In this document: in pieces, positions 7,602-30,862 of the stretch | Position numbering within the stretch: the stretch's first letter is position 1 | Layout of the letters: each line of letters begins with the position of its first letter | NCBI GenBank assembly: GCA_044892505.1 | Contig: CM097882.1 | Coordinates: 230,956,596-231,014,000 of the forward strand | From: Schmidtea nova | Taxonomy: Eukaryota | DNA length: 57,405 nt | Direction of reading: 5' to 3' | The notes under the pieces: model-generated | What the model saw: only the letters and a program-made list of their open reading frames with translations | What the model was told of the DNA's origin: nothing | Database searches by the model: none | Position numbers and translations under genes: made by a program

Positions 7602-7602
<1 letters not shown>

Positions 7603-10932: not shown

Positions 10933-10950
10933 TGGGGGCTCAGCCGGGAT
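10933..10950 (+). promoter_or_regulatory. Primer binding site, tRNA-Pro type
   Basis: TGGGGGCTCAGCCGGGAT matches the classical tRNA-Pro PBS TGGGGGCTCGTCCGGGAT at 16/18 and lies just after the LTR end. Confidence 0.88.
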
Positions 10951-11255: not shown

Positions 11256-11717
11256 ATGGAGGAAAAACTGAAAGAAATCGAAGAATTTTTCAACACCGAG
11301 AACGATACATTTGAGACAGTCTGCGAAAAAATAACCCGAATAAGAGCATCCGAATATGAGGAACCTACGACACAAACTGAGGAAACAACTGAGTTAATAA
11401 AAATCATAGATAAAGTAAATAAACTCGATATAAATACGCGATATAAATGGTACAAAGCACGATTAGAGGATGCCGAGTTGAATATCAGATGCCGACATAT
11501 AGAACAGCAGTTAAACCTAACTTATAACCGATGGATGTCGCAAGGGGTCGAGGCAGCAAAACAATATAAACGATGTTACATATGTGAAGACAGTGAAATC
11601 CAAATAATGTTTCTACCATGCGGACATTTTCGATTTTGTAAAAACTGTGCGAATAAGTGTGATGAGTGCCCCATGTGCAATTTCTCTGTAACTGATAGAA
11701 TTGTAGTTTATTTATAA
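11256..11717 (+). CDS. 153-aa protein with a C-terminal IAP/MDM2-type RING finger, no BIR
   Basis: CYIC..IMFLPCGHFRFCKNCANKCDECPMC...RIVVYL at the extreme C-terminus. Confidence 0.85.
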   Translation: MEEKLKEIEEFFNTENDTFETVCEKITRIRASEYEEPTTQTEETTELIKIIDKVNKLDINTRYKWYKARLEDAELNIRCRHIEQQLNLTYNRWMSQGVEAAKQYKRCYICEDSEIQIMFLPCGHFRFCKNCANKCDECPMCNFSVTDRIVVYL

Positions 11718-12193
11718 TAAATATTTAGAGTGTGTTAATATATTGTATCGAATGACAAAGTCGGGGGAGCAATCAACAATGTTAATTAATTTTTGAGCTA
11801 CTGTCAAGTAGTCCGTTAAGCACCCATTGGGAGGTACCAGTTGATCAACCCACTCGGGGTATATAGAAAGGGGCCAATCGCAAATGTTGGAAAGCTTTTG
11901 TGATGTGATTGATCACCACATCCCGCATTAGTAGACCAACGCGATCTTTTTGTATATTTTGGTTGGGGAGAGAAATAGGGAAAACCACGATGAGTTAAGA
12001 TGCGCGCAGAGAAAATAATAAAAATTGAAGTAGAACTGATCAGCGAAAGAATTAGTAATAAAACAAAGAATCGAGGAATTATAAAGGAAAATAAGAGGTG
12101 CATAATCAGCTCGCATGAAATTGAGAGAACTCAGCTGAGAAATTGTAGTCGCTAGCGAAGTTAAGAATTACGATTAACCGGTTAAGGAAAATT

Positions 12194-12407
12194 TATTAGA
12201 ATTTGTCCCTTGAAACAAAGGGTTATCAGCGGTTTGTCCCTTGAAACAAAGGGTTATTAGAATTTGTCCCTTGAAACAAAGGGTTATCAGCGGTTTGTCC
12301 CTTGAAACAAAGGGTTATTAGAATTTGTCCCTTGAAACAAAGGGTTATCAGCGGTTTGTCCCTTGAAACAAAGGGTTATTAGAATTTGTCCCTTGAAACA
12401 AAGGGTT
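12194..12407 (+). repeat. Tandem array 1: 7 x 30/31-bp units (61-bp dimer)
   Basis: tttgtcccttgaaacaaagggttat followed alternately by tagaa or cagcgg. Confidence 0.95.
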
Positions 12408-12640
12408 GAGGCCAAAGAGCCATATTGAATGACCTAGCTAGGCGTTATTGAGAGATATGATTTAAGGCCAATAGAGCCATTTGAGATAATTGAGATATGA
12501 TTTAAGGCCAATAGAGCCATTTGAGATAATTGAGATATGATTTAAGGCCAATAGAGCCATTTGAGATAATGAGATATGAATTTGAGGCCATAAGAGCCAT
12601 TTGAGATAATTGATATTAATTTGAGGCCAAAGGAGCCAAT
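12408..12640 (+). repeat. Tandem array 2: ~40-bp units
   Basis: gagatatgatttaaggccaatagagccatttgagataatt, about 5 copies with degenerate ends. Confidence 0.9.
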
Positions 12641-12654
12641 AGGGATATCCGGAT

Positions 12655-12915
12655 ATATAGTAACGGAGGGAATATAAGCCCAGGGTTACAATTGTTGAGT
12701 AGCAACGGAGGGAATATAGGCCCAGGGTTGCAATTAGTTAAAATTAAAGGAAGATAGTAACGGAGGGAATATAGGCCCAGGGTTACAATCGTTTGAGTAG
12801 TAACGGAGGGAATATAGGCCCAGGGTTACAATCGTTTGAGTAGCAACGGAGGGAATATAGGCCCAGGGTTGCAAGTGATAAGAAATAACAACAGAGGGAA
12901 TATAGGCCCAGAGTT
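12655..12915 (+). repeat. Tandem array 3: ~43-bp units
   Basis: tag(t/c)aacggagggaatataggcccagggtt, about 6 copies. Confidence 0.9.
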
Positions 12916-13466
12916 GTGATCGTCGACGATAAGGAGAATAGTGCGCACCGATAAAAAGAGAAATGCGAGTAAAGCTGATTATGCGACCTAAAATAATGCA
13001 TGCAAGTAGAATTGAGAAATAGGAGCTGACCGGAAAGACCGGCAGAATTAATAATTAGAGGCTAGCAGAGAGAAAGATAAAGAGATGATAAAATAATAAT
13101 CGAGTCAAATGACTCAGGGAATTAGAGCGTTCGAACGACAAATAAATTGGGAGACCGCGGGAAAAATAATTGATGTATTTTAATAACCGATAGATAATTG
13201 TTATGACTAAATAGATAATTGTGACTAGTATATAGATAATTTAAATAGACTTAAATAAAGGGGAATCTGGGAATGGGGAAAAATAATAGAAACCCAGTAA
13301 TGAGAAGTCCCGTAAAAAGGGAATAAAAGCGCAACGATAACAATAGAGTATCGTTGAAGTGACATTTGTATTTTAGATAAATCAATCAAACCAAACCAAG
13401 CAACCAAGGAAGAAAAGAATCGGAATACGATAAGACAGGAAAATTGAGTATACAAAAGTAATCCCG

Positions 13467-16400
13467 TTGAGAAAAGGAGAAAAGAGTGTCATAATAAAAC
13501 CAGCAGAGAAGAAAGTCGACAGAAAAATCAACAAAGAGGACCCAAATAGTGTGGTAATAAAACCAGCAGAAAAGAATAAAGCTACCAAGAATAATAATCA
13601 GAAAGGCCCAAAAGGAAGTAAAGCAAGGCAGATAATAATACAAAAGTCGATTATCGAAAACGATAAATTATCAGTAACAAGCAACAGTTCAAGCAACAAA
13701 GAAAATCAAGCAGAACCCGAGAGAAACCCAATAAGTGAAATAGAAGTCGACAAAACCAACAACGATTATATAGAAGAAATAGAAGACGAAGTAGAACAAG
13801 AAACAGAAAGTGACGATACCGATAACGATAGTAAAGCATCAGATAACGAATCAACAAAAGAAACTGAGATCGACCGAAATTCGAGTGACGAACCTAACAG
13901 TGAACTAGAAACAAGAGGAAACGAAAGTAAAATAACTACAGACAGCGGAATCGAAATGAGCGAACCAAGAGAAGAGATAAAAGACAAATTTTCCGGAGAA
14001 CCGTTTAATGGAGATGCGAGTAAATTGGAAACTTTCTTAAAAGAATTTGGCATATTCGTGGAAGTATGCAAGTGGAAACCAGAAACAACTATAAGCAGAA
14101 TTCAGCTATATTTAAAAGATAGCGCATTAGATCTATATTTGGAAGCAAAAAATGGAATTAATCCACCTACAAGTTGGTCAGCGATAAAGGACTTTTTCCA
14201 ACAAACCTTCGGAATAAACAAAGTATTGAATGAGGCATTTACGGAATTCTCAATGAGGAAACAAAAGATAAATGAATCGAATGCGGTATATGCAAGCGAA
14301 TTAAAAAAGTTAGCAAAGTTGATTTTCAATCAAGACAGCCCAATAAATGAGGAGTTAATGGCAGCTATCTTTGTGGGAGGATTAAGAAGACCCGACATAA
14401 GAGCGCAAGTTGGATGTCAAGGGTGTAAAACTATTGACCAAGCATTAGAAACAGCTAATAGATTTGAACTACACATGATAGGAAATGACGGTAGAATCTA
14501 TTTAGCTATGGATACAGCACAAAACGAACAAGAAGTGAACCTGAATAACCACATTCCAAATTCACAACAATTAAACCGACCACCACCGCAACGAAGGAAT
14601 GAAGGGAATAAAGTATCAAATTACGGAAATCAAAACAATTACAACCCCCAAGGACCAACGAAACAATGCAAAACATGTGGGAAATTGGGACATTGGCAAC
14701 AAGAATGTTATCAGAACTTGAATTGTGGAAAATGTGGAGTAAAAGGACATTCAGAGAGCAGATGTTATACAATAACCTGTTTTAATTGTGGACGACCTGG
14801 ACACCTATCAAGAAAGTGCGGACAAAGAAGCAATCAACGAGGAAACTGGCAGAATATTGGAAACCGACCAAACTATGGAAACCAACCAACTGGTGGAAAC
14901 CAACCGAATTATGGGAATCAGCCAAATAATGGAAACCGACCGGAATACGGAAACCAGCAAAATAATAATAATAACCAAAATAAAAACACCACTAAAGAGA
15001 TACATTTAATGCAAGAGGTTCAAAGATTGACGGAGCTGATAAACAATACAAACAGAGGAAATCCGCAAACAGGTCAACAACAAATCAACATGATGAGAAA
15101 AATAGAAAGCGAAAACGAACGATTGAATCGGGAAAGCCAAGCACGACATGCTCAGGAATGGGCAAGAATACAAAGAGAAGAGGAACAAAAACAGCAAGAA
15201 AGAGAACGACAACCTCTAAGAATTAATATGATGAGAGCAACCAATCAAACAAATACCCACGAGAAAGAGACGGTGCCAGAAATAAATCCAACAAACCTGA
15301 ATCCAACCAATAACGAAAGTCGAAAAGAAATAGTACCAGGAAGCGAAGAAGTAGAAAAAGAAATAGAGAAGGAAGTGGAAACAGAGGTAAACCAGGAAGA
15401 GAAAAAAAAGATTTGGAAAAAGGGAATGATGGTAATCCTGCCAAACGGTCATATGTTTCGATTCCAATACAACATAAAGGAAGAAATAGGAATATTGTTC
15501 AACAAAGTAAATGAAATGGCTCCAGGAGTAACGAAACTGCCCAGAGAAGCATTCCTAAAAATAGAAGGTGCACCAGAAGTAAAATTGAAATTAACAGATA
15601 CATGGGAAAACATGGGAGTAGTAGAAACAAAAAGAAATGTGATGGTAATCAAAGAAATAGAACCAGAAGGAATTCCACCGCCAGTGCGTCACGAAACACG
15701 AATCAGTCGAATATTTAAAGGGAAAATGATACGAAGACGGTTGGGAGAAATAGACGAGTTGGAACGAAAAATGAGAAAGGTCGAAGTAGTAGACGATGAG
15801 AGTAAATCAACACAAAAAACTATCGAAAATGAAACGAAACCAACGGAAAATACACCAAGTGAAATCAACCAAATAAAACACATTAACATGTTGAGAGGCC
15901 AGGCAAAGAATTTTTCAGACGACGAAGAGGATAGTGACGTCAGTAGTCTAGCCGGAGACATGCTAAACGAACCGGAAATTGAAGACAAAAAGATAGAAGT
16001 AGTAAAGACACAAGGAACTATTCAAGTAAAAGAAGACGAGATCCAGAAATTATTAGATAATACGCTAGAAGTAATATATAATGAGGAATTCATTGACAAG
16101 AAACACTATAGAAAATTCATGAGAGCGATATTACAAATGAACTATAAAGAGTGGTTACCAGGCCGGGAAGTAGAAACACTAACCCAATACGTAGGAAAAT
16201 TATTAAAAGAACCACTCCATGAATATATAATCCTAATAGAGATAAAAACATGTTTGCCAAGGATTTGGATCAAAACTCCACTCACGGAAGATATTTACCA
16301 ATGGGTAGAAGACAGATTAGGGAGCTCGTATAAGAACAAATTCCTCTATTCACAGAATGGACTAGTAAAGAAAAGGACGCATTTGATAGAAACAGGCATA

Positions 16401-19400
16401 TGGCCAGGAGAGGTGACAACATTATCGATATGCGATGATAAGAGAGAAGAGAACATACAAGAAGTAGCAAAGGAAGCGAATACGTGTTTCGAGAAGAAGA
16501 TAAAACCACGGTCAGAATATGAGAAAGGACGAATCTTACGAGGAAATCTAAACTCCATGATAGAACAAATCATCCCACAAATCAAAAAACATAGGAAGGA
16601 GTTAATGAGAAGCGAATACGAGAAGTTGAAACGATGTATCGAGTGCATACGTGACACAAGTCACACGAGATGGTCACAGATCTCATACGGAAAAGTAATT
16701 GCAAAAATGGGAAAAGCAATGTTCAGACAAGGGAAAATAACAGATCTGAAAATTGCAGTAGAGTTACCTAATGAGGATACCAAAGAAATTGAAGTGGTAG
16801 CAGACTGTACCATAAAAGAATTAGTAAATGTCCTCAACGAGACACTATTACAAAGAGAACCAGAAGAAGAATGGGAAGATGACATAATCATGAAATATAA
16901 TGAACATGTATTATGGGATCACGATGAAAGACGGCTATATAAAATTGGTATATGGGATAATCACCAAACCATCCACGTTATCAGAATGGACGATAAACCA
17001 AGAGAAACTGCTAAAGATGAGAAAAGAGAACGGGAACGACAAAAAGAAGTTGTGCATAAATTACAACAAATAGTAGACATCTATCGAAATTGGCGGATTT
17101 GGCCAGAATGGGAAGATGTATTAGAAGAACTCAATCTCAACAGACGATTACGAAAACCTGTAGAAAAACAATGGAACGAACGAGGAAAATGTTGGGAACC
17201 AAAAGCAGGCGAATACGAAGAGGAATACGAAATAGGCATAGAAGACGATCACAAACCGGAAACCGGAAGAGTCTGTATGGTAACAAGAAAAGCCATGCCA
17301 GCGGATTTAGACGGACCTGAAACAACAACCATGTGGTTGGAAAGAGAGAAACAAAAAACAGAAGAATTTGTCGAAATATTAAAAACCAATGCGCACGGCA
17401 AGAGAAAAGTAGTAAAAGGTCTCGCAGATTTTTTCGTAGTTAATGGAGAAGACATAACATGCTTTCGTAAAGTAGCAAAAGCAATCGCCGAATACAAAAG
17501 AGTTAACGAGTGGTGTCCAGAACAATTGGATCACGTAATTAAAAAATGGAGAAACCAAGAATTCTCGCAGGAATCGCCACAGAAAGTACACCTAAGAATA
17601 GTATATCCGAACCAAGAAAAGGAAGAGTTTTGGGTAGGGATAGCGGAGAAAGTTCGAGACATTAAAAGGAAATTGAGATATGAACCACCATTCCATTTAC
17701 AACACCAAGGACGATCATTAGATAACAGCTTAGAAATTGGAATAACGCCAGCGCAATTAGATATCGCAAATACATTGACAGTGGCAGCAATAGCAGGCCA
17801 ACCATTAAAATTGAAAGAGGAAAAGAAACCAAAAGGAAGTATGAGTACGCCGAGCCCAATGAAATCGGTAATGACTCCAGGAACAAGCTCAGAACAAGCT
17901 AGAACAACACCAAGAGAGACAAGAGAAAGAACACCACCAGAACCATACGATGTAGACGAAATTTTTACAGATAGCGATGATATGTTAGAGGAGTTAATAG
18001 AGCTAACAAAAGAGAAAGATGATAATATTTTCGAAAGAATTCAAGAATTACCAACAGCAATACCGGTAACCAACACCGAAGATGAAGTTGAACAAGAAAT
18101 AATCATCGAAGAAGTAAATGAAATAGCAGAAGAGGAAGCAAGGAGGGCAAATGTAGAAAATGTACAATTCACACAAGAAATGGAAAGATGGTTAGAAGAA
18201 AGAGCCAATGAACCAAGAGACGTCACAGAAGAAACTGGACGAGAAACAAGATTAGTAGAAACGGGCACGACAATGGACAAACGACCTAGAGGTAGACCCA
18301 AGATGGATCCAGCAAATGTAATTATAAAATCAAGAGAGGAAAAAAGACGGGATCAATGGGATTTGTGTCTAAAGAAACTAAATAAAATAGCCGAAACGAA
18401 AGAAAAAGAAACAACACAAACATACCAAGGCGAGGAATGGATATCAAAGATGTTAATGGAAATACTGGCAATAATCGATCCGGAATTAAAGAAATGGTGG
18501 AGAATAAACGAAATAAGCGAAAGGGCGAAATCACTGCATAGCGCCATCGCACCAATCCTACCAGAATTAATAAAAGAGAAGACAAGGTCAAACCACCTAG
18601 ATTGGCAAGGAACCACGATGTTGATAAAGAAGTTAACGGAAGGAGCAGAGACGGATAACAAATATTTAATAGCTATGGCATACACCATTTACAATCTGCT
18701 GACACTGAGTAGAGGTCGACTGAAACCCACAGCACTTGAAAGACATATAAAGAATACAGCCAAAATTATAGAGAAGGAAATAGAACCGTACATCATCAAT
18801 AAAGGAGGATGGGAGACATTCACAAAAACAAACCAAAAGAAAAACCAATCCAAAAATATGAAAAAGAAATTCGAAGAGATATTGGGAGAATTGGAAAAGG
18901 AAAAGTCGGGAACAGGAAACGGGAAATCATCACTAAACTTGAGTTCTATTATTATGATGATGTTAATATGGATGATTAGTACTGACGGCGCAACAGCATT
19001 TGAAGTATTCGATTGCGATCAAATGGCATTAGGTGAAAAATACTCATTACGAGGGACAGAACAATGTAAAGACGCAACCCCAACGGAGCTAAAAACATTA
19101 AAAAAGAGACAATTATACCACGTATATCAGGAAGCTGAACTGATAAGAACAATGGTCAGGGAATGCAAAGTTTATAAAACCAGATTTGCTTTTTATTGTG
19201 GACACCGCCATTATTCAGCAATCGTGATGCCAGGAACGGAAAGAGAATCAGTAATGCTGCAAGGAGAAGACTGTGAAAAATTATTCAAACATGGAGAAGT
19301 AGAGACCAGAGATAGAGTAAAGATAAGAGGAAAAACGGGAGTAATATTACAACAAACATACTATGTAGCAGGAGCTATTACGGGAGGAGAAGGGTATTGT

Positions 19401-20147
19401 CAAGGAGCAACATATCCAATATTCGGAGTAGCAGCAACAAACCTAGTAGTAATAGATACGTATACAGTGGAATTAAAAACGTACGAGGCATTCTTCGACC
19501 CAACAACGGGAGAAATGAAAACTCTACCAATGTGCAAAATCGAGTCAAACACGTGTCAGACTGGTATGTCAACCTTAACATACCAGATACGAGGAAAGGA
19601 ATGTCAACTACAACTGTTAAAGGAAGCAGAATTCGATGAGATACAAGGGAAAACCTTCCAAGAGGAAGAAGAAGACGAGGCAGCAAGAGGAAAAATACTT
19701 CAAGACACCGTACGAGGAGAGAAAAAGATTGAAACACGAACACAAGAAAAGCAAATCAAAATGAGAAATACACCAACGGTACTAATTACCTCCGATGCAG
19801 ATATCGGAATGAGATTTGTAAAAGGTAAAACAGCCTTGAAATGCGGAGTAGCCATGTTGGAAACCAACTACCCCGGCATTTTTGTATCAAAACAAGAAGT
19901 ACCTAGTGCGAAACGCAAAGTGCACACGAACGATGTTAAATTACACCTTTACATGAATAATAAAATGGATTTTCTGTTCCATAGAGGACAAGCGTCACTA
20001 CAAAAAGTGTATTACGATTTAATTAACAACGACTGCATACTAAATAGGGAAATATTAAAGACAAAACTAGCAGTAGCAATCACAAACCCGGATAGTGCAA
20101 TGCCATTATTACCATTGAGAGAAGGTCATTTTGGAAGGGTAGTCTGA
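13467..20147 (+). CDS. gag: Polyprotein part 1: Gag (CA + 3 CCHC), Ubl-like modules, AT-hook, Bcl-2-like domain, signal peptide and N-half of fusion glycoprotein
   Basis: Capsid-like FNGDASKLETFL..IFVGGLR and three CX2CX4HX4C knuckles at 14667-14819. The true start is unresolved (first in-frame ATG 13956). Ends at TGA in frame with the next ORF. Confidence 0.9.
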   Translation: MRKGEKSVIIKPAEKKVDRKINKEDPNSVVIKPAEKNKATKNNNQKGPKGSKARQIIIQKSIIENDKLSVTSNSSSNKENQAEPERNPISEIEVDKTNNDYIEEIEDEVEQETESDDTDNDSKASDNESTKETEIDRNSSDEPNSELETRGNESKITTDSGIEMSEPREEIKDKFSGEPFNGDASKLETFLKEFGIFVEVCKWKPETTISRIQLYLKDSALDLYLEAKNGINPPTSWSAIKDFFQQTFGINKVLNEAFTEFSMRKQKINESNAVYASELKKLAKLIFNQDSPINEELMAAIFVGGLRRPDIRAQVGCQGCKTIDQALETANRFELHMIGNDGRIYLAMDTAQNEQEVNLNNHIPNSQQLNRPPPQRRNEGNKVSNYGNQNNYNPQGPTKQCKTCGKLGHWQQECYQNLNCGKCGVKGHSESRCYTITCFNCGRPGHLSRKCGQRSNQRGNWQNIGNRPNYGNQPTGGNQPNYGNQPNNGNRPEYGNQQNNNNNQNKNTTKEIHLMQEVQRLTELINNTNRGNPQTGQQQINMMRKIESENERLNRESQARHAQEWARIQREEEQKQQERERQPLRINMMRATNQTNTHEKETVPEINPTNLNPTNNESRKEIVPGSEEVEKEIEKEVETEVNQEEKKKIWKKGMMVILPNGHMFRFQYNIKEEIGILFNKVNEMAPGVTKLPREAFLKIEGAPEVKLKLTDTWENMGVVETKRNVMVIKEIEPEGIPPPVRHETRISRIFKGKMIRRRLGEIDELERKMRKVEVVDDESKSTQKTIENETKPTENTPSEINQIKHINMLRGQAKNFSDDEEDSDVSSLAGDMLNEPEIEDKKIEVVKTQGTIQVKEDEIQKLLDNTLEVIYNEEFIDKKHYRKFMRAILQMNYKEWLPGREVETLTQYVGKLLKEPLHEYIILIEIKTCLPRIWIKTPLTEDIYQWVEDRLGSSYKNKFLYSQNGLVKKRTHLIETGIWPGEVTTLSICDDKREENIQEVAKEANTCFEKKIKPRSEYEKGRILRGNLNSMIEQIIPQIKKHRKELMRSEYEKLKRCIECIRDTSHTRWSQISYGKVIAKMGKAMFRQGKITDLKIAVELPNEDTKEIEVVADCTIKELVNVLNETLLQREPEEEWEDDIIMKYNEHVLWDHDERRLYKIGIWDNHQTIHVIRMDDKPRETAKDEKRERERQKEVVHKLQQIVDIYRNWRIWPEWEDVLEELNLNRRLRKPVEKQWNERGKCWEPKAGEYEEEYEIGIEDDHKPETGRVCMVTRKAMPADLDGPETTTMWLEREKQKTEEFVEILKTNAHGKRKVVKGLADFFVVNGEDITCFRKVAKAIAEYKRVNEWCPEQLDHVIKKWRNQEFSQESPQKVHLRIVYPNQEKEEFWVGIAEKVRDIKRKLRYEPPFHLQHQGRSLDNSLEIGITPAQLDIANTLTVAAIAGQPLKLKEEKKPKGSMSTPSPMKSVMTPGTSSEQARTTPRETRERTPPEPYDVDEIFTDSDDMLEELIELTKEKDDNIFERIQELPTAIPVTNTEDEVEQEIIIEEVNEIAEEEARRANVENVQFTQEMERWLEERANEPRDVTEETGRETRLVETGTTMDKRPRGRPKMDPANVIIKSREEKRRDQWDLCLKKLNKIAETKEKETTQTYQGEEWISKMLMEILAIIDPELKKWWRINEISERAKSLHSAIAPILPELIKEKTRSNHLDWQGTTMLIKKLTEGAETDNKYLIAMAYTIYNLLTLSRGRLKPTALERHIKNTAKIIEKEIEPYIINKGGWETFTKTNQKKNQSKNMKKKFEEILGELEKEKSGTGNGKSSLNLSSIIMMMLIWMISTDGATAFEVFDCDQMALGEKYSLRGTEQCKDATPTELKTLKKRQLYHVYQEAELIRTMVRECKVYKTRFAFYCGHRHYSAIVMPGTERESVMLQGEDCEKLFKHGEVETRDRVKIRGKTGVILQQTYYVAGAITGGEGYCQGATYPIFGVAATNLVVIDTYTVELKTYEAFFDPTTGEMKTLPMCKIESNTCQTGMSTLTYQIRGKECQLQLLKEAEFDEIQGKTFQEEEEDEAARGKILQDTVRGEKKIETRTQEKQIKMRNTPTVLITSDADIGMRFVKGKTALKCGVAMLETNYPGIFVSKQEVPSAKRKVHTNDVKLHLYMNNKMDFLFHRGQASLQKVYYDLINNDCILNREILKTKLAVAITNPDSAMPLLPLREGHFGRVV
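18350..18830 (+). other. Bcl-2-like domain in the polyprotein
   Basis: Helical domain ending EIEPYIINKGGWETF (BH2-like WI..xGGW..F), with a weak BH1-like LDWQGTTMLI. Confidence 0.55.
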
Positions 20148-20850
20148 GAGGTCATGTATGTATACATATGTAAAAAGACAAACGCGAAAGTAGCGACAAT
20201 GACAAAATTACAACCAGGTCAGTGTACTAACGAACTAGAAATCGAATATAAAGGGAAAGTGAGATATGTACAACCAGTGACAAGAATCATAAATCCAATA
20301 AGCTTCGAACCAAATCCTTTCAATTGCAGCAACGCATATGGACCACTATACCAAAGGCCAGACGGGAATTGGGTTATGTTTCCGTCAAGAACAGAGGTAC
20401 CAGCACCAAGAGAATTTGAATTAATGCAACTATCAAAAGGAAGAAAATTTAAAGACGTAGATGTAAGCAATATGGGATTCTATAGTGCAAAAGATTTAGA
20501 GGCAGCAAGACAAAACATACTATTTCCAGCAAGACGAGAAGCGGTGTTATCCAGTATTGTAACAATAACAGGAGGAACAAATTACCAAGGTGGACCAAAT
20601 TACGAATTATTATTGTCACCAGCCCACTTTAAGAAGGCAACGGAAAACATGATGAAAGCGATGTGGGGAAGATTTTTAATATTTGGACAAATGATGGCAG
20701 GAATACTTGGTGTTATACTAATTATACAAATAATACGGGTAATAATAACGCAAATGTTAGCCTGTTTTGACATCTATAAAAGAGAAAAGAAAGTAAATTG
20801 GAAATTGGTGGTAGGATTCTTACCATTTTTGGCTAAAACAATGGTATTAC
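18933..20850 (+). other. env: Env: chuvirus-like (class III, gB-related) fusion glycoprotein with internal signal peptide and TM
   Basis: SSIIMMMLIWMISTDGATA followed by FEVFDC..YSL..C, FYCGHRHYS, G.CQGATY, CG..LETNYPGIF, (G)EVMY..C and C.NEL...Y. TM FLIFGQMMAGILGVILIIQII at ~20673-20770. Confidence 0.8.
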
Positions 20851-23800
20851 ACGGCCATTCAAAAGATATTCACCGAATAAAGAGACTCCTAAAAATACTG
20901 GCAAAAATGAAAGGAACCGACGAAGAAGTAGGACGGAAATTTAAAAAGATAATGAACAATGAGCAAGCGAGACAACAACTAAAGAAAGAGAGAAAAGGAC
21001 TATGGGAAAGAATGAAAGGGTACAGAACCCAAGACGATTCCAGTGACGACGATGATGATGATAACGAAGGAGGGCAAGTATATAAAAATCAAGTACCACA
21101 GTATGTCGAAAAGAATCCAGCCGAAATGTGGAAGTGTTACGCACCCGCACCAACCATGTACCAAGAACCAACACCAGGGATGAGACAAAATACAATGCAA
21201 ATGATGCCGATGACAAACATATATCCTATGATACCGGAAGACTATAGAACGAGACGGTGCAGAAGTGTAGATCCGCAAGGAGACTCACATACAATTGCAG
21301 TAATGTCATCAAACACCGGTCCAGTATTAACTACAACAATCGAAATTAACGGAAGGGAAATAGAAGCGATGATTGATACAGGAGCAAATATCTCAGCAAT
21401 AGATATAAAATGGATACCACAAGAACAAAGACGGGATATCGAGAGAACCAACGTTCACGTAATAGCATGCAGTAAAGAAGTAGTAGAAGTTGCCGGAAGA
21501 TGGCGGGTAAAGATAAAACATCAAAACACGGAAATCGAAACGTACGTAGCAGTAATACCAGCACTGAGCGTACCATGCATTATAGGCACGGATCTAATGC
21601 CAGCATTATTTAAAGAAATAGTTATTGACCTCGGAACAATGAGATTAAAGGATAGGACAGGACAGATATGCGCAATAGAAGCAAAAGTAACAAGTTCGAA
21701 ACAAATAATCGTACCAGCACGGAGAAAGAAAATATGTTTCGTAAAAATAGATCCTACAATAGAAGGTGACATGATCTTTGAACCCAGTAAAAGATTTGAA
21801 AAGAGAAAGTCGTTGCCAATGGCAAGGGGATTAGTGAGTGCGAACGACAACGGAGAAATCCCGATAAATGTAGTAAATTTCGATGAAGAGGATAAAATAA
21901 TTTATGAAAATGAAAGATTAGGTAAACTAACTCCAATGATAGATATCGAAATACCAATAAAAGAAGGAGTAAAAGAGGAGGAACCCACTTGGAACATTGA
22001 TAGCCAACTATTGAATGAGGAGCAAAAGAAACAGCTAGAAAGATTACTGATAGAATATAAAGACATATTCGCAGCATCCGATTTAGATCTAGGGACATGT
22101 GATGTCACACTACATACGATTCCACTAACAGACGAAACGCCGATTGCGTTAAGACCATACAAGTTAGCTGAAGCGCAAAAATCAGTAGCAGAAGCAGAGG
22201 TACAGAAAATGCTAGACGCAGAAGTAATTGAACCAAGCTGCTCACCGTGGCAATTCCCAGTTGTAATGGTGAAAAAGAAAGACGGAACACAACGATTTTG
22301 TATTGATTATCGGAGATTAAATGCGGTAACAAAACGGGATACCTACCCATTACCAGACATCAACGAGATGTTATTGACATTACAAGGAGCGGCATATTTT
22401 ACATCATTGGATTTGAAAAGCGGATACTGGCAAATTAAAATGAAGGAGGAAGACAAAGAGAAAACTGCTTTCCCCATCGGAAGAGACTTGTACCAATTTA
22501 GGAAAATGCCATTCGGACTAACCAATGCGCCAGCATCATTTCAAAGATGTATGAATTTCGTTACCCATGGCATAAAACAATGCATGGTTTACATTGACGA
22601 CCTACTGATCTACTCAAGCACATTTGAACAACACATCCAAGATATCAGAGATGTATTTGTGAGATTGAGACAATGGAAACTCAAGCTCAAACCATCGAAA
22701 TGCGATTGGGCAAAAGAGAAAGTGACATTCTTAGGACATATTGTGTCCGCAAAAGGAAAGGAACCAGATCCCAGAAACATTGATAAAGTAAAAGAATGTC
22801 CAGTACCAAAGACGATAACGCAGATCCAAGAATTTCTCGGATTATGCGGTTACTATAGAAAATTCATAAAGGATTACGCAGGAATTGCAAAACCAATCCA
22901 GGAGCTAGTAAAGAAAGACGTATCGTTCATATGGGGAAGCGAACAACAAACAGCCTTCGAAACATTACGAGATAGGTTAATAACCGCACCAATATTGGTT
23001 CACCCGGATTTCAAGAAGCCATTTTTACTCGCAACCGACGCAAGTGGATATGCAGCAGGAGCAGTGTTAGGACAATATGATGACGAGGGAAAAGAGCGGG
23101 TAATCGGATATTATAGCAGAACATTCAAGAAACACGAGAAGAATTATTCAGTAACGGAAAGAGAAGCATTGGCAATAATATTAGCAATAAAACACTTTAA
23201 ATATCTATTATGGGGACACATTATATGCATAACCACGGATCATCAACCACTGGTATGGCTAGGACAACATAAGGAAACATCCAGCAGGTTGATGAGATGG
23301 GCGATGCAATTACAAGAATATTCACCAGATATAAAATTCAAATCAGGAAAAGCGAATGCCAACGCAGATTGCATGTCAAGATTAACGTTTCCAGAATTAA
23401 CAGACCCAGAAGTGCAAAGAATATGCATAATGATAGCAGAGGATTTGGATTTCAGTGAGTTAAAGAAAGATCAGCAAGAGGATAAAGAACTAAGACCCAT
23501 CATAGAATTCCTAAGCTCACGGAATATGGATGTATTCAAAGACAATACGGAGTTAAAAGAACACATGAGGAAATACCAACATCGATACACAATAGAAAAA
23601 GGATGGTTATTAATACGAGATGGAGAGAAACGATTAATGTGTCTGCCAGGTAATAGACGAAAAGAGATAATAACTCAATACCATGACGGAAAGCTAGGAG
23701 GACACATGTCCGATAAGAAGACATTAGATCGTATGAGACAAAAATATTATTGGCCAACAATGGACGAGGACGTTAAAGAATGGATAAAGAACTGTTTAAC

Positions 23801-26800
23801 TTGTGCCACAAGAAAGGATAGTGGGAAGAAATGGAAAAATCCCTTAAAACCCATGCCGATACCAGCAGAACCAATGACTACCATTGCGATGGATGTAATA
23901 GGACCATTGCCAGAAAGTTTAAACGGGAATCAATATATATTGGTAATAACGGATTATTTGACTAAATTCCCTGAAGCATTTGCGATGCCGGATCAAAAAG
24001 CAAAGACCGTAGCAAGAATTTTAGTAGAGGAAATATGTTGTCGATATGGAACTCCGAAACAAATACTGACAGATCAAGGGACAAATTTTATGAGCGAAAT
24101 ATTAGATGAAGTAACAAATTACTTCAGAATAGCCAAATTACGAACGTCACCATATCATCCGCAAACTAATGGACAAACGGAAAGATTTACCGGCACATTG
24201 ATTCGAATGTTATCCAATTATGTAAGCAAACACCAAACAGATTGGGATGAGTACATAAAGCTATGTCTAATGGCATACCGAATGTCGATACACGCAGCAA
24301 CAAAATTGAGTCCATTTCAATTAATGTATGGAAGGGAATGCAATATGCCAATAGATCTTGAATATCAACCACCTTTGTCTCAATATATGGAGGAAGATGA
24401 TTACGTCACCAAATTCAAAGAACGAATGCAAGAGATATGGAAGACCGCAGAACTAAACATAAAGTTTTATCAAGAGAGTTACAAGGACCTACACGATCAG
24501 AAGAAGAATGTTAGAGCAAATGATCTTAAACCCGGAGATTGGGTAATGATAGAAACCCCAGAAATAATACCAGGAACCGTTAAAAAACTACAAAGACCAG
24601 GAAAAGGCCCTTACGAAGTTATATACAAAAAGGAAAACAATGTGAAGGTAAAACTTGTTAATCGACCATTGATACGACCAATATACGTTAATACATGCAG
24701 ATGTAAAAAAGTACCAAAGACAATAACCACAGCGCCAGAAGAACGAATAATAACCAGATCCCAGACAGCCAGAATGAATATGCTCAGAGCAACCAATGAA
24801 AGTACCGAAGCAGAAAACAATCAACAAGAAAAAAGAAACAAGGAAATTGTACTAAAAGCCAGAGAAATAATGGGAAAATGGCATGTCAGAGACGATATAT
24901 TAAGAGATATTCAGTCGATAATTAGTGATTACGCAAGGGGACTACCAACAAAACCAGTCATTTCAGAACTACTGGAAAAGATTCCAGAAATACTTTCACT
25001 AGAAGACATAGGAGGACAACCAGCATTACATAACGCCATAAAATGGGGAGAAGTAGAGAGAGTAAAAGAATTTCTAAAAATCGCTAAGGAAACAAACCAA
25101 CACCTTGGTTTTGGGAATAGCGAACAAGAAACACCATTAATGGTAGCAGCCATCTACAAATCGGATAAAGCAATAATAGACCTTTTGATAAATGCCGATT
25201 TCAACTGGACGGAACGCGATAGAGAAAACAAAACAGTCTTGAATCACGCAATATGGAGCTCAAATCAGATAATGCTCAAACAAATAATCGAGAAGGCCAC
25301 TTGGGAAATAGACGAACTGATCAAAGGTGATATAATCAAGGAGGCAATAAAAATCGGTAACTGCAAAACAATACGCAAGCTAATAAAGTGGAAAAGATCC
25401 GAAAATGATACATGGGTATTAAATATAAACGAGGTATACAGTGAAGGACAAAACGCGTTATTACAATTCCTATTAAAATTAGTTTGTGATCAGAAAACAC
25501 TGTTAATATTATTGGACAGAAGAAATATTACAATTTCCAAAAACAAAGAGGAGTGTAAATTCGAAAGGGAAAAAGAAGCATTATTCAGGAAAATTAGGGA
25601 ATGGTGTGCAAAATCGCTAACCAAGACGATAACTTACAAAGATATATCCAATTTTCAAGACAAATACAAAACGGTGGAGGAAGAGTATGACAAACTAATA
25701 GACATATTAAACCACCCTGAAAAATGCAAACAATTCCTATGTCGAAAGGAAAGAGAAAGCAAAAGGAAATTTACACCACTTTTCAGCGCAGAGATACCAT
25801 ATCAAGAAAGGTTAGATGCGATACAGGACAAAGCAAAAGAACTATTACCAGAATTCGAAAATTCTAAACATACACTGGAGATACTCGGAGCAATTGTGGA
25901 AAAGGTACACGCATACGCGGAAGGAACTTACAATGAAAACGATATGATGATCATAAAAAGAGAAATGCCAGTGACTTTCTTATTAACAAAGAATGGAGTA
26001 TTGCCAATACATAGAGCCTTACGAGCAGGAAAAGATAGGAGGGTAGTCGAAATTGCACGGTTGATGCAAGATTGCGGAAGTGACATGAACATGAAAGATA
26101 AAAAGGGAGATACTCTCATGATATTCGCAGCAAGAGCGAACACAAAAACCCGAGTGTTACAGGAACTGTACGAAGCAGGTGCAGGACTCATGGGAAGAAC
26201 CAACAAAGACAGCTCAATACTAGACGTAGCGTTGTTAGCGCACAATTGGGAGGTGATAAATTTCATAAAAACAATCACAAATCAGGAGGAAATAGAATAC
26301 CTTATAAGGACAGTTAAAAAAGCTAGCGTACATTCCATGATGCATAACGCTGGACTAACCGAAGCAATACTCAATTGGATGAACCCAAACACCAATGAAC
26401 CAGCATTCAGGATCAACGAGTTCATGGAACAAGGCCAAAATTTGTATATAAAGTGGGCATTAATAATAAACAAATGGCCAAAGATAATAGACATCTTCAT
26501 GAGAAGAAAAGATTTGCGATTCACAAACAACCCAAAGGAAACAGAACGTACGGACAAATGGAAAGAACTAATGAAAACGTACCTTAATAATTGGATAAAA
26601 GCCAAGAAAGAGATTCTAGATTGTAAATTAACCGATAAGGAAATACCTAAGCAGGCAGTAACACAAGAATATAAAGCAAGTATACTCACAACCATAACGT
26701 ATGAAAAAATGGTAGAAGCAATAAATGTCGAGGACGACATTTTCAACGACCAAAGGGGAGGCGACAATACAGGAAACGACGACGATAGTACTCGAGAAAA

Positions 26801-28907
26801 TCCAGAGGATCATGAGTTATCAGATGAAGAGGACAGTGAAGAGAAAGGAAGGGACACAGAGAAAAAGGATAAGAAAAATGAATTTGGGAAACAAAGAAAC
26901 AACAACTATAAAAATAAAAACGAAGCAAAAAGAACAAGCTACAAACAAACAATAAATCCATTCTTTAAACCAGAACTATTATTACTAACGGTAATCATGA
27001 CCTTAATTAGTCCCACTCAAGGAATGATATGTGAAGAAAAAGCGACAATACAAATTGGAAACGCAAAAGGAATCGAACGAGTATGTTGGTCAAAAAAGGA
27101 CAAAATATCGGGACAAAATAGTCCAATGGATTGCAGGATCTCAGAATACGAACAAGAAATCATAGAGATCGATGACCTAGAGCTAGATACTTGGTACAGA
27201 ATGTGCACCGTTCGGAAACCAAAGGATCCGAGATCACATAAGACAATTGCATGTGCAAATTACCTAACACCCAAAATAACCATAACAGTACAGCAGACAT
27301 CCAAAGGAGACTACGTCGTAGGAAAGTGTGGAAAAACAGAGACCCAAGGAACAAAAAACAAAAAAACCCAGACAATAGATAGACGAACAACGCCAACTAT
27401 ACGAATTACCATAGACAGGCCCGAAGCAAGAGTAACCACAAATGAAACCGAAAGAGTGACCTACCAAACAGAATTACTATGTTTAGCACTCATATTAACA
27501 ATGTTAAAACGGTTAGAAGAAGGGATAGACATTGACACAATGGCAGTAACAGAGATGATCGACACCCAAAACACCAACCCAAAGTGTTGGGCCAGAAGCA
27601 ACGAAGAAATTGGCGTAAGCGAAATAAAGACGAGTTGGAAAAGGAAAACAAATAAAGTAACCAAGATATCAGAAGTAAAAGCAGACAGGACGTATGAACT
27701 ATGTTTACTAGAAAAAGAAAGACACAAGAAAGGAACGACAATTTGTAAAACATTTCAACCTGGGGAAACAATAAAGTTCATAAGACGAGGAAGAAAAAAT
27801 ATACGCACCAAACGGAGAACAACTATAATGTTAGAGTTAACCGGGATAGAACCGGACGTCAAAGGCGTATGCTGGAAGAAGCAAGAAAAGAAAACAAACC
27901 AGAATACACCGCCGCAATGTCGAACAAACAGAGGAACAACCACAATACAGATAGAAGGGTTAGAAAGTAATCAAACGTACGAAATATGCCTGATCAGGAA
28001 GAGCGACAAAATAACAGTAAATGAACTGGAATGCAAAATATATAAAACACCCACCAGAACGAGAATTGGAAAGACAACGCAAAAAAGCAGAAGACAACGG
28101 AACAAAGGAAAAGCGAGGTATACCACTACTTTTAAACCTAATGGACAACAGAAAAACCAAGAAATACAAATAAAGAATACTACAGCAACTCTTATACTAG
28201 GGAGAATAGACAATAAAACGTTAGAAATATGTTGGGCAGTAGTTCAGGAACGAAAAGAAAGACGGCCACGAAACTGCGAAAACGTAAAAGGAAAAGAAGA
28301 AATGAGTATCAAAAATCTGAAATTTAATAGAGAATACGAGATATGTGCGGTAGAAAAGACGGACATATTGGGAAATCAGCAGGAAAGATGCGAAACGTAC
28401 TACACACCGGTAAACTCAACGTCCAAAGGGAAAGTGAGAAAACTCGAATTTAAAGAGTTAAGTCAGACAACGAAACAAATGGACGAGGAACAAGTAGTAA
28501 TAGACCCTTACGCAAGATGGACGCCGGAAGAAGTAATTAGAGAAGTTAAAAGAAAACAACAAGAACGAGAACAACTACTAAATAAACTAAAGGGACAATA
28601 CGGACCAATGATTAACCAGAGTGAAATTACGAAGATGGACGTAAACAAACAAGTTAGAGAACTAATTGGTCTAGGAATACTAGCAGCAACTATTCCAGTA
28701 ATAACAGTATTATTAATAATATGGATATATGATGTATTCAACAAGAAACCAATAACACATTGGCCAGATATAAAGATTATGAACTACAGTATAGAATTAC
28801 CGGAGGAAGTACAGAAAGAATTCCAAAGGAGGACGAAAGGTAAAGAATTTTGGAGACAAATAGAGGATGAAGAGCGATACGAAGGAAAGACAGTGATGGT
28901 GATATAG
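20154..28907 (+). CDS. pol: Polyprotein part 2: glycoprotein C-half + TM, PR, RT, RNase H, IN, ankyrin modules, FN3-like membrane protein
   Basis: IDTGA (21372), SPWQFPVVMVKKKDG, YIDD (22590), TDASG, HDGKLGGH..CLTC, MDVIGPLP, TDQGTNF, HPQTNGQTER, GPYEV. Confidence 0.96.
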   Translation: MYVYICKKTNAKVATMTKLQPGQCTNELEIEYKGKVRYVQPVTRIINPISFEPNPFNCSNAYGPLYQRPDGNWVMFPSRTEVPAPREFELMQLSKGRKFKDVDVSNMGFYSAKDLEAARQNILFPARREAVLSSIVTITGGTNYQGGPNYELLLSPAHFKKATENMMKAMWGRFLIFGQMMAGILGVILIIQIIRVIITQMLACFDIYKREKKVNWKLVVGFLPFLAKTMVLHGHSKDIHRIKRLLKILAKMKGTDEEVGRKFKKIMNNEQARQQLKKERKGLWERMKGYRTQDDSSDDDDDDNEGGQVYKNQVPQYVEKNPAEMWKCYAPAPTMYQEPTPGMRQNTMQMMPMTNIYPMIPEDYRTRRCRSVDPQGDSHTIAVMSSNTGPVLTTTIEINGREIEAMIDTGANISAIDIKWIPQEQRRDIERTNVHVIACSKEVVEVAGRWRVKIKHQNTEIETYVAVIPALSVPCIIGTDLMPALFKEIVIDLGTMRLKDRTGQICAIEAKVTSSKQIIVPARRKKICFVKIDPTIEGDMIFEPSKRFEKRKSLPMARGLVSANDNGEIPINVVNFDEEDKIIYENERLGKLTPMIDIEIPIKEGVKEEEPTWNIDSQLLNEEQKKQLERLLIEYKDIFAASDLDLGTCDVTLHTIPLTDETPIALRPYKLAEAQKSVAEAEVQKMLDAEVIEPSCSPWQFPVVMVKKKDGTQRFCIDYRRLNAVTKRDTYPLPDINEMLLTLQGAAYFTSLDLKSGYWQIKMKEEDKEKTAFPIGRDLYQFRKMPFGLTNAPASFQRCMNFVTHGIKQCMVYIDDLLIYSSTFEQHIQDIRDVFVRLRQWKLKLKPSKCDWAKEKVTFLGHIVSAKGKEPDPRNIDKVKECPVPKTITQIQEFLGLCGYYRKFIKDYAGIAKPIQELVKKDVSFIWGSEQQTAFETLRDRLITAPILVHPDFKKPFLLATDASGYAAGAVLGQYDDEGKERVIGYYSRTFKKHEKNYSVTEREALAIILAIKHFKYLLWGHIICITTDHQPLVWLGQHKETSSRLMRWAMQLQEYSPDIKFKSGKANANADCMSRLTFPELTDPEVQRICIMIAEDLDFSELKKDQQEDKELRPIIEFLSSRNMDVFKDNTELKEHMRKYQHRYTIEKGWLLIRDGEKRLMCLPGNRRKEIITQYHDGKLGGHMSDKKTLDRMRQKYYWPTMDEDVKEWIKNCLTCATRKDSGKKWKNPLKPMPIPAEPMTTIAMDVIGPLPESLNGNQYILVITDYLTKFPEAFAMPDQKAKTVARILVEEICCRYGTPKQILTDQGTNFMSEILDEVTNYFRIAKLRTSPYHPQTNGQTERFTGTLIRMLSNYVSKHQTDWDEYIKLCLMAYRMSIHAATKLSPFQLMYGRECNMPIDLEYQPPLSQYMEEDDYVTKFKERMQEIWKTAELNIKFYQESYKDLHDQKKNVRANDLKPGDWVMIETPEIIPGTVKKLQRPGKGPYEVIYKKENNVKVKLVNRPLIRPIYVNTCRCKKVPKTITTAPEERIITRSQTARMNMLRATNESTEAENNQQEKRNKEIVLKAREIMGKWHVRDDILRDIQSIISDYARGLPTKPVISELLEKIPEILSLEDIGGQPALHNAIKWGEVERVKEFLKIAKETNQHLGFGNSEQETPLMVAAIYKSDKAIIDLLINADFNWTERDRENKTVLNHAIWSSNQIMLKQIIEKATWEIDELIKGDIIKEAIKIGNCKTIRKLIKWKRSENDTWVLNINEVYSEGQNALLQFLLKLVCDQKTLLILLDRRNITISKNKEECKFEREKEALFRKIREWCAKSLTKTITYKDISNFQDKYKTVEEEYDKLIDILNHPEKCKQFLCRKERESKRKFTPLFSAEIPYQERLDAIQDKAKELLPEFENSKHTLEILGAIVEKVHAYAEGTYNENDMMIIKREMPVTFLLTKNGVLPIHRALRAGKDRRVVEIARLMQDCGSDMNMKDKKGDTLMIFAARANTKTRVLQELYEAGAGLMGRTNKDSSILDVALLAHNWEVINFIKTITNQEEIEYLIRTVKKASVHSMMHNAGLTEAILNWMNPNTNEPAFRINEFMEQGQNLYIKWALIINKWPKIIDIFMRRKDLRFTNNPKETERTDKWKELMKTYLNNWIKAKKEILDCKLTDKEIPKQAVTQEYKASILTTITYEKMVEAINVEDDIFNDQRGGDNTGNDDDSTRENPEDHELSDEEDSEEKGRDTEKKDKKNEFGKQRNNNYKNKNEAKRTSYKQTINPFFKPELLLLTVIMTLISPTQGMICEEKATIQIGNAKGIERVCWSKKDKISGQNSPMDCRISEYEQEIIEIDDLELDTWYRMCTVRKPKDPRSHKTIACANYLTPKITITVQQTSKGDYVVGKCGKTETQGTKNKKTQTIDRRTTPTIRITIDRPEARVTTNETERVTYQTELLCLALILTMLKRLEEGIDIDTMAVTEMIDTQNTNPKCWARSNEEIGVSEIKTSWKRKTNKVTKISEVKADRTYELCLLEKERHKKGTTICKTFQPGETIKFIRRGRKNIRTKRRTTIMLELTGIEPDVKGVCWKKQEKKTNQNTPPQCRTNRGTTTIQIEGLESNQTYEICLIRKSDKITVNELECKIYKTPTRTRIGKTTQKSRRQRNKGKARYTTTFKPNGQQKNQEIQIKNTTATLILGRIDNKTLEICWAVVQERKERRPRNCENVKGKEEMSIKNLKFNREYEICAVEKTDILGNQQERCETYYTPVNSTSKGKVRKLEFKELSQTTKQMDEEQVVIDPYARWTPEEVIREVKRKQQEREQLLNKLKGQYGPMINQSEITKMDVNKQVRELIGLGILAATIPVITVLLIIWIYDVFNKKPITHWPDIKIMNYSIELPEEVQKEFQRRTKGKEFWRQIEDEERYEGKTVMVI
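24840..26640 (+). other. Two tandem ankyrin-repeat modules after integrase
   Basis: GGQPALHNAI, ETPLMVAA, KTVLNHAI, then GVLPIHRAL, GDTLMIFAA, SSILDVAL. The paired ends read INEVYSEGQN and INEFMEQGQN. Confidence 0.8.
26970..28907 (+). other. C-terminal type-I membrane protein with FN3-like repeats
   Basis: Signal-like ELLLLTVIMTLISPTQG, four VCW..C..I..L...T.Y.IC..C modules, and TM LIGLGILAATIPVITVLLIIWIY at 28662-28740. Confidence 0.65.
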
Positions 28908-29032: not shown

Positions 29033-29389
29033 ATGAACGAACAGGAAGAAATAGCAGAAACTACTATGGCTATGCGATGGAAAGCCCAGTGTGACATGTT
29101 AATACGAACAATCAACTCACTACAAAATCAGTTAATTGAGAAACAGAATTTGTTATCCGAAAGTTATAATAATAGTTTTGAACAACTCCACAGAATCGAG
29201 GAGCAACAGAGATTGATAACGCAACTTACCAGAGAGAATCAAGTAATGAGCGACATAAATCAGAGACAAGCAATAGAGATAGACCGTTTAACAATGGGAG
29301 AGACAGAAGAAGCAGAGGATGGATGGACAAATTGGGCAATAAACAGATCAGAAAACGACCCAGAACCAGATTCAACAAACGAGCCGTAG
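29033..29389 (+). CDS. 118-aa coiled-coil accessory protein
   Basis: ATG ORF with heptad-like Q/E/L content, flanked by AT-rich spacers. Confidence 0.65.
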   Translation: MNEQEEIAETTMAMRWKAQCDMLIRTINSLQNQLIEKQNLLSESYNNSFEQLHRIEEQQRLITQLTRENQVMSDINQRQAIEIDRLTMGETEEAEDGWTNWAINRSENDPEPDSTNEP

Positions 29390-29479: not shown

Positions 29480-30862
29480 ATGAATACAGAAGGAAAAGCC
29501 GAAGAGCGGATAATCGAAATTTTGAGAGCCGAGAACAGGAAATGGAGTCAGAGACTCACTTGTGTAAATTGTAAAAACAAAATATTGAAACCAAGACAAA
29601 CCCTATGCGGATGCAGAGTATGTACCAAATGCATACACGAGTTAAGTATGAAAAGACCACCAGAATGTCCAGAATGCAAAGAAGGACAAATAAAATTCGA
29701 AGAAACCGGACCAGATAGAGCAACTCAGAGAGAAATCATGAACACGAAAACCGAATGTATAAATCAACCATGTATATGACAAGGACAAATACGCGATCTC
29801 GAGAACCATCTGGAGAACTGCGAAGAGAAGAGAACTGAATGTAACAAATGCCAACAAAAAATAACTATAAAGAATAAAGAGCAGCACAAAGATGAATGTA
29901 AAGAAGAGGAAAGTCTATGCGAATATTGTGGAACTCGAGAAACGAGGAGAAAGATCGAAGAAGAACACCTGAATGTAAAAGAGGAGAAAGTATGTAGACA
30001 ATATGTAGGAATATGTGCAAACGAATGCGAGATAACGGTAGAAGTAAAATTACAAGAACATTGGAAAGTGTGCACGGAGAAACCAAGGGAATGTCCTTAT
30101 AACAAACAGGGATGTATGGAGAAAAGAACGCAAAAAACCATGAAACAACATCTGGAGGAAGCATTGCTAAAGCATGCGGAAATGACAAACGAAGCAACAA
30201 AAGAAACCGAACAAACAATCAAAAAATTAGAAAGAGAAATAGAGTCACACAAGATAATGGTAAACCTACTGTTGGAAACCAGAGAGCAATTCGAACTAAC
30301 ACGAGAAAAGATGGAGGAAAAGATAAAAGCTATCGAAGAATTGGCTAAAGGAATGAAAATCCAGTACAACAAACTCACCCAGGATACCGAGGAAAAGTTA
30401 CCAATCGCACCATATGTGTGGAAAGTGACAGATTTTAGAGACAAATTAACAGAGGCCAGAAATATGACGAAAACAGCAGTAATAAGCCCACCATTTTATT
30501 TATGGAGAAACGGAGCTAAAGTGAGATTGAAGCTATACCCAAATGGAGACGGAAGAGGACGAGGAACACATGTGTCAATATTTTTCTCGCTATGTAAAGG
30601 GGAATACGACGACCTAGTAGAATGGCCCTTGAAAGTAGGAGTCATTGTAAGAATCAGAAGTGTAACAAAACCAGTAGAAAAATTCTTTGAGACAGAGAAA
30701 CATGCGAGTACGAGCGAGAAACCAACCACAGAATGTGGATTAGCAGCGGGAGAACCGATGTTTATAACGAAAGAAAGCCTATGGGAACGATTATATGCAG
30801 ACACCCTATACATAGAAATGGAAAGGAATGAGAAAGCGGATAGAAAAGGATGGTTGACGTAA
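29480..30862 (+). pseudogene. TRAF: TRAF-family protein (RING, TRAF zinc fingers, coiled coil, MATH), 460 codons with one in-frame TGA at 29777-79
   Basis: ORFs 29480-29779 and 30068-30862 are in one frame, and I found no other stop between them. MATH motif YVWKV..F...SPPFY...LYPNGDGRGRGTHVSIFF..GEYD..EWP. The TGA sits at the Trp of C.W.G. Confidence 0.9.

Follow-up and report, generated by a model that had tools for sequence, protein, structure and literature searches.

A planarian Burro-type Ty3/gypsy element with a class III-like envelope inside one long frame and a second predicted membrane cassette behind integrase

We analysed a stretch of 57,405 nucleotides (nt) from Schmidtea nova (assembly GCA_044892505.1, contig CM097882.1, positions 230,956,596 to 231,014,000 of the forward strand; hereafter the window, whose own numbering is used throughout), which holds a long terminal repeat (LTR) element of ~28.6 kb. 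Judged by its sequence, this is a Ty3/gypsy (Metaviridae) element of the planarian Burro kind, with all of its features on the plus strand. In its family Gag, an envelope glycoprotein (Env), Pol and a further predicted surface protein share one giant frame, whose product is probably a single polyprotein, likely threaded twice through the endoplasmic reticulum membrane and likely cut by signal peptidase together with the element's own protease. The threading is what we infer from the single frame in sister copies, the order of the domains, four hydrophobic segments, the folds and the selection acting on the frame. The headline layout and the fold class of the Env are already known and no new class of element is involved. 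Our additions are a second signal-ectodomain-transmembrane (TM) cassette behind the integrase in all four families examined, a topology that recurs across them, an in-frame subfamily without Pol and a relative from metagenomes whose chain is predicted to enter the lumen three times.

The long frame (13434..28907) is interrupted once in this copy. Two giant open reading frames (ORFs), 13434-20147 (2,237 amino acids, aa) and 20148-28907 (2,919 aa), lie in one register, and their sole break is a TGA at 20145..20147 followed by GAG GTC; the frame coordinates and register confirm what a first-pass annotation, made from the sequence alone, had described here. The joined span counts 5,157 codons from stop to stop, 5,146 from a TTG at 13467 and 4,983 from the first in-frame ATG at 13956. 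The 174 open codons ahead of that ATG (13434-13955) align with those of a related family, family 2, from residue 47. Among the 30 best DNA loci the window is the only one to carry the stop, the codon being open in all 29 sister loci. Ten sister copies were fetched in two stretches each: in six the frame is open throughout, at 5,140-5,141 codons, and four are broken elsewhere. Moreover, 33 of the 86 matches with at least 96% protein identity lie in frames of more than 5,000 codons. A single frame over the same span in so many sister copies is far beyond chance. The annotated polyprotein of ~5,150 codons is thus true of the family, and the sister copies hold env and pol in that one open frame, different frames being the outcome that the annotation had named as telling against it. 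A TRAF-like gene of this copy contains another private stop, at 29777-29779, where all ten sister copies are open. We conclude that the TGA is a private lesion, by mutation or assembly error, and no read-through site. The damaged copy would yield only Gag and a truncated, unanchored piece of Env. The true start of the frame may lie upstream of 13956, at a non-AUG codon or by way of a spliced leader.

The Env ectodomain (18999..20657) is divided by the stop. The Pfam family PF24664 (Monjiviricetes fusion glycoprotein) matches on both sides of it, at profile positions 6-208 in the first frame (E 1e-32) and 376-579 in the second (E 3e-28), and the protease follows downstream; the glycoprotein does span the ORF junction upstream of the protease, as had been proposed. 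For structure, the ectodomain was modelled with X at the stop together with 11 relatives of 36-84% identity. The fold comparison with chuvirus G and herpesvirus gB that the first-pass annotation called for bears out its chuvirus-type fusogen, within the limits of a low-confidence model. Against the BFVD viral models the best matches were qin-, chu- and xinmo-like glycoproteins (E 2.8e-23, TM-score ~0.4), and against the PDB all listed matches were herpesvirus gB (best E 1.4e-9, TM-score ~0.2). These models support a class III-like Env in local fold, the global arrangement not being resolved. The likeness to the chu-, qin- and xinmo-like glycoproteins and to gB lies in PF24664 and in the best structural matches; those proteins, in contrast, come from stand-alone genes and are 9-19% identical to the Env here. 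Sequence profiles of Env found no meaningful solved relative in the PDB. A class I (F-type) Env, possible from wording published in 2019, is unsupported, the fold matches listed being class III. A furin-type site is present in one of four families and is not conserved. A protein database gave one relative (P0002, 36% identity) and none among longer proteins, the search being a weak one, and no relative was found in phage records or viral contigs.

Four segments called by hydropathy divide the long frame. A predicted internal signal peptide (SP1, 18927..18998; peak 18945-19001) precedes the Env ectodomain and is present in all four families and in the metagenomic relative, L152. The membrane-proximal region and predicted TM segment of Env (TM1, 20658..20780; peak 20691-20747, KD19 2.57) follow it and are conserved in relatives. 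Behind the integrase and an ankyrin region come a predicted second internal signal peptide (SP2, 26952..27023; peak 26952-27008), with an equivalent in all families, and, after the second ectodomain, a predicted TM2 with a 57-residue tail (28656..28907; peak 28665-28721, KD19 2.65). The internal signal and TM order read by the first-pass annotation is recovered at these places, and the order SP1-Env-TM1 and SP2-ectodomain-TM2 recurs in family 2, in all five family-3 copies, in both scanned copies of family 4 and in L152. In the window and in families 2-3, SP1 is short, ends in small residues and stands just ahead of the conserved Env N-terminus; in family 4 it is longer and more hydrophobic (KD 2.2-2.4). 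Five weaker hydropathy peaks (KD 1.3-1.7) fall in Env, just past TM1, and in the protease, RNase H and the ankyrin region.

The second predicted ectodomain (27024..28655), identified by alignment, PDB profile and fold model, consists of four cysteine-bearing repeats resembling fibronectin type III (FN3) domains, and a stalk. Families 1-3 have four repeats each, and two cysteines are invariant in all 12. A profile of the repeats found Tie2, fibronectin and tenascin weakly in the PDB (best E 0.013), Pfam fn3 matched one of the 12 repeats (E 0.007), and Atlas features gave fn3 at 0.91 for the repeats, with low recognition. FN3 domains are seven-strand beta-sandwiches with an L-x-x-x-T-x-Y pattern. 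One repeat of the window was modelled (pLDDT 79, six strands called) and matched FN3 with Z 8.2 and a root-mean-square deviation of 3.0 over 78 aligned residues; nearly all 50 rows of this structure search were FN3, although the tool warns that a Z near 8 may reflect a common arrangement. The second ectodomain therefore appears to be of FN3 type, a fold that modelling supports for one repeat, and the FN3 domain annotated at the C-terminal end agrees with profile, Atlas and fold alike. Between FN3 repeats 1 and 2 of the window, at 27460-27530, lies a hydrophobic stretch resembling SP2, which family 2 has too (KD 1.48).

The sister families extend these observations over a wide range of divergence. 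Family 2 has an Env 84% identical to that of the window. The Env of family 3 is 50% identical; this family has recurrent frames of 4,993 codons and carries its MATH domain within ORF1, whereas in the window MATH lies in a downstream accessory ORF. Family 4 (four copies fetched, two scanned) has an Env of 36% identity and recurrent frames of 3,401 and 3,393 codons without ankyrins. An ORF downstream of these frames (L128:7824-9272, L131:7843-9249) looks like a DEDD exonuclease by eye and has no Pfam match. L152 is the sole relative found in metagenomes and carries one frame of at least 3,426 codons (L152:2-10279), with an exonuclease ORF downstream. Its order is Env, three DTG protease domains with a signal-ectodomain-TM cassette between the second and the third, Pol and a further signal-ectodomain-TM, amounting to three predicted luminal excursions in one frame. 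What family 4 and L152 share with families 1-3 in the second cassette is its topology: homology of all second ectodomains was looked for with hhalign and not detected.

To gauge selection we compared the window with one family-2 copy by the ratio of non-synonymous to synonymous substitution (dN/dS); dS is near or above 1, and the values are rough. They are 0.06 for Gag, 0.09-0.10 for Env, 0.04 for the protease, 0.02 for reverse transcriptase (RT) and integrase, 0.14 for the ankyrins, 0.28 for the second ectodomain and 0.18 for TM2 and tail, and 13 of 14 regions fall within 0.02-0.28, indicating purifying selection on the element's frame. Within family 2 (loci L081-L088 and L093-L096) a recurrent frame is one of ~4,118 codons (4,100-4,145), seen in 15 of 64 matches versus two above 5,000. 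All six fetched copies of this form have lost RT, RNase H and integrase by one in-frame deletion and keep Gag, Env, protease, ankyrins, FN3 and TM. The junction is spanned by 40/40 scored family-2 matches, giving at least 40 copies. It is a short imperfect repeat without a GT donor, and an origin of the Pol-less copies from reverse-transcribed spliced RNA is unsupported. In these copies dN/dS, pooled over non-independent pairs, is 0.10 for Gag, 0.05 for Env, 0.01 for the protease and 0.22 for the second ectodomain. The Pol-less copies may provide the structural proteins themselves and depend on RT and integrase from elsewhere, and because Env is under purifying selection there, Env would seem to matter for their spread. 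Such selection bears on whether these elements move between planarian cells and stem cells.

We propose the following course for the intact family product. Gag and a Bcl-2-like domain would remain in the cytosol. SP1 would direct Env into the lumen, and TM1 would bring the chain back, leaving protease, Pol and ankyrins on the cytosolic side. SP2 would then open a second luminal passage, for the FN3 repeats, which TM2 with its short tail would anchor. A signal-peptidase cut after SP1 would separate Gag from Pol early, so that Pol would enter the particle not in a Gag-Pol protein but attached to Env as its cytosolic tail; if signal peptidase does cut there, RT and integrase must be packaged otherwise than through Gag, and Env is the likely vehicle. 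The element's protease would release the mature proteins at a recurring word of I-N/C-M type, putative sites for which flank the protease on both sides, mark the boundary between RNase H and integrase and follow the integrase. The FN3 repeats would make up another surface protein, displayed on the particle or the producer cell, and the conservation of a further membrane cassette suggests a retroelement that divides attachment and fusion between two proteins. Flavivirus and alphavirus polyproteins use internal signals and stop-transfer segments and are cut by host signal peptidase and a viral protease. This is an analogy only, as those are RNA viruses with class II fusogens and share no homology with the element.

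Several points weigh against this double threading. Signal peptides and TM segments were called by hydropathy alone. The Env model is of low confidence (pLDDT 54.5, pTM 0.39; TM-scores 0.2-0.4). Glycosylation sequons are not enriched in the predicted luminal segments (one of eight at P<0.05). The rarity of the putative protease word there (4 in 4,121 predicted luminal residues versus 39 in 14,402 others, P ~0.02) does speak for the threading, but the word was picked post hoc and the families are related, which leaves this P soft. The sequence of SP2 shows no visible conservation (dN/dS 0.79 over 25 codons). Families 1-2 and L152 have a third, short hydrophobic stretch within the second ectodomain, which could change the topology. 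Between the window's repeats and the corresponding ectodomains of family 4 and L152, homology was not detected (hhalign 0.1-0.2%; an Atlas lead only, 0.87). Finally, equal (1:1:1) output of Gag, Env and Pol is unusual and invites splicing. In such a scheme the working proteins would come mostly from spliced subgenomic RNAs, for Env, for the FN3 protein or for a separate Env-less Gag-Pol, leaving whole-chain threading a minor route. The atypical equality of Gag and Pol fits it, as do an acceptor-like AG within 4 nt of the ATG in 4 of 5 accessory ORFs and methionines in or just ahead of SP1 in several families. However, by a crude score, none of 11 signal segments has an acceptor-plus-ATG pair within 300 nt upstream, four families and L152 alike keep the frame open over every junction, and the site where the Pol-less deletion closes is a short imperfect repeat that lacks a GT donor. 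We consider this route unlikely.

The chain might instead be threaded with SP1, SP2 or both as uncleaved signal-anchors, Env being held by two membrane segments and Gag, Env and Pol staying linked until a cytosolic cut by the viral protease. Ectodomains of gB type are reported to be flanked either by signal peptide and TM or by two TMs (PMC13524379). The longer and more hydrophobic SP1 of family 4 would suit an anchor. A short signal ending in small residues, on the other hand, is the pattern expected of a cleaved signal, and this is how SP1 ends before the conserved Env N-terminus in the window and families 2-3; we give the signal-anchor variant little credence. The first-pass annotation had spoken of a read-through polyprotein. 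Programmed read-through at the TGA, which would set the ratio of upstream to downstream product, has in its favour a single in-frame TGA between open frames, and gag/pol read-through occurs in retroviruses. However, the stop occurs in one of 30 loci, where active copies of a read-through retroelement would share it; it falls within the Env ectodomain, and its copy carries the further private stop in TRAF. With 29/29 sister loci open we rejected read-through, which has next to no probability left. Much more evenly poised is whether the SP2-FN3-TM2 product is host-modulating cargo, an adhesion molecule or receptor decoy on the producer cell, rather than a virion attachment protein: we see the chances as about equal. 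The element is rich in other host-like cargo (TRAF, RING, ankyrin, Bcl-2-like), the second ectodomains differ among families and L152 bears an extra cassette at another position. Yet every family examined, even the ankyrin-free family 4, has a cassette of this topology at the end of its polyprotein; the cassette is kept in the Pol-less copies (dN/dS 0.22), and it evolves faster than Env, as may be expected of receptor-binding proteins, which often do so. The broadest proposal, possible but doubtful, sees in the Burro elements retroviruses of planarians that have an envelope and enter cells by two glycoproteins cut from one membrane-woven polyprotein, a class III fusogen and, at the classical env position, an FN3-repeat attachment protein. 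Pol would be packaged as the cytosolic tail of Env, and Pol-less satellites would spread by providing Gag, Env, protease and the attachment protein while borrowing RT and integrase.

Known systems account for much of this layout. The Burro/GYPSM1 gypsy elements of planarians, in which env stands between gag and pol in the same frame, were published in 2019 (PMC6431247). They resemble the element here in size (~25-30 kb), in one ORF1 of 4,873-5,140 aa, in a Gag with two to three CCHC knuckles, and in a Bcl-2-like domain, env between gag and pol, the order protease-RT-RNase H-integrase, ankyrins and MATH_TRAF_C. The giant size and the one ORF1 of ~5,000 aa with in-frame env are both found in the window's element; of the Burro cargo, Pfam finds ankyrin, MATH and RING, with Bcl-2 weak and in a relative only, and detected neither BIR nor ubiquitin-like domains in the window. 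The Burro/GYPSM1 text likens env to gypsy Env and mononegavirus glycoproteins and, in the part seen, is silent on signal peptides, topology, an FN3 module and a Pol-less form. GAG-ENV-POL elements with gB-type Env from Platyhelminthes, Nematoda and Bryozoa, six of them from Schmidtea, were published in 2026 (PMC13524379). These errantiviruses share with our element the Ty3/gypsy backbone and a gB-type Env ahead of Pol, and the Env row of Smed_errantivirus_1 is close to family 4 by eye. The main text of that paper, as far as it was available, has no 'polyprotein', 'single ORF' or 'fibronectin', and discusses neither a further membrane protein nor the position of Pol behind an Env TM. Atlas virus, a hookworm belpaovirus, has a single Gag-Pol-Env polyprotein of 2,828 aa without stops and an envelope captured from RNA viruses (PMC9094657); however, its backbone is BEL/Pao, its glycoproteins are class II GN-GC, and its Env is C-terminal, so that no luminal domain interrupts Gag-Pol. 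In the literature searched, neither threading nor the second, FN3-bearing cassette nor Pol-less copies came up, although figures and supplements may hold them. Two further reports merely mention Burro (PMC11410931 and PMC13238120). BURRO1 transcripts are detectable in Schmidtea tissues (PMC8532177) and therefore tests on native RNA and protein are within reach.

The Ty3/gypsy assignment follows from the ends and from Pol. The 5′ LTR (7602..10930, 3′ end approximate) begins with TG, and the 3′ LTR (32900-36205) runs at its far end into a stretch masked by N; over 7602-10907 and 32900-36205 the pair differs by 4 mismatches in 3,306 nt (99.9% identity), and we take this copy to be young but stop-damaged. 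Its left flank is an ATT microsatellite. The primer-binding site (10933..10950) is complementary to host tRNA-Pro(TGG), pairing with the final 15 bases of the host tRNA-Pro genes plus CCA. The LTR pair and tRNA primer-binding site are joined by the order protease, RT, RNase H, integrase and by an RT of Ty3 type. The closest solved structure to the RT is Ty3 RT (E 7e-87; no tree was built), and the backbone is therefore Ty3/gypsy. The first-pass annotation had set out from the usual place of env 3′ of pol and from captures in BEL/Pao elements; its in-frame gag-env-pol layout stands, though already published, but a BEL/Pao (Belpaoviridae) backbone is ruled out by that RT and by Pfam (E<=0.1), which gives RVP/gag-asp protease and RT_RNaseH families and no Pao peptidase family.

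The remaining domains of the long frame are those of a retroelement with added cargo. The Gag capsid region with three CCHC knuckles, counted from the first in-frame ATG, spans 13956..14873 (zf-CCHC E 1e-6; knuckles read in the translation), and a relative matches Retrotrans_gag (E 5e-7). A weak Bcl-2-like helical domain lies at 18531..18878 (dN/dS 0.05): the homologous stretch of a relative matches PF00452 (E 0.0065), while the window sequence itself has no Pfam match there. Pol comprises a retroviral aspartyl protease with DTG (21315..21617; PF00077, E 6e-9), RT (YIDD) and RNase H of Ty3/gypsy type by Pfam and likeness to Ty3 RT (22065..23327), and an integrase with H2C2 and core (23625..24707; PF17921, PF00665), and is followed by an ankyrin-repeat region of approximate end (24945..26297; PF12796, E 4e-13). 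Ahead of the long frame are an accessory ORF with a RING finger (11256..11717; PF13920, E 8e-12), its ATG preceded at 4 nt by an acceptor-like AG, and two leader tandem-repeat arrays with units of ~30 and 43 nt, found by repeat scan (12193..12933). Behind it lie a small accessory ORF from the ORF list with no family assigned (29033..29389), the stop-split TRAF-like ORF with zinc fingers and MATH (29480..30862; PF22486, PF02176), a coiled-coil-like ORF with no Pfam match (30978..32039) and an accessory frame with one TM segment (32101..32694; KD19 3.16), the last two conserved in family 2.

Other features were noted in passing. The tRNA-Pro(TGG) genes form a tandem array with 308-nt spacing (G000:C1:459608206-459656577), with 899 pattern matches across the genome. 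Each LTR contains a frame of 171 codons (8955-9470 and 34253-34768) without a Pfam match. Upstream of the element, at 1318-7541, nested inverted repeats flank a minus-strand RT frame of 785 aa (3486-5843; PF00078, E 2e-8) that looks Penelope-like by eye, and towards the far end of the window, at 54907-55876, are 29-nt tandem arrays in inverted orientation.

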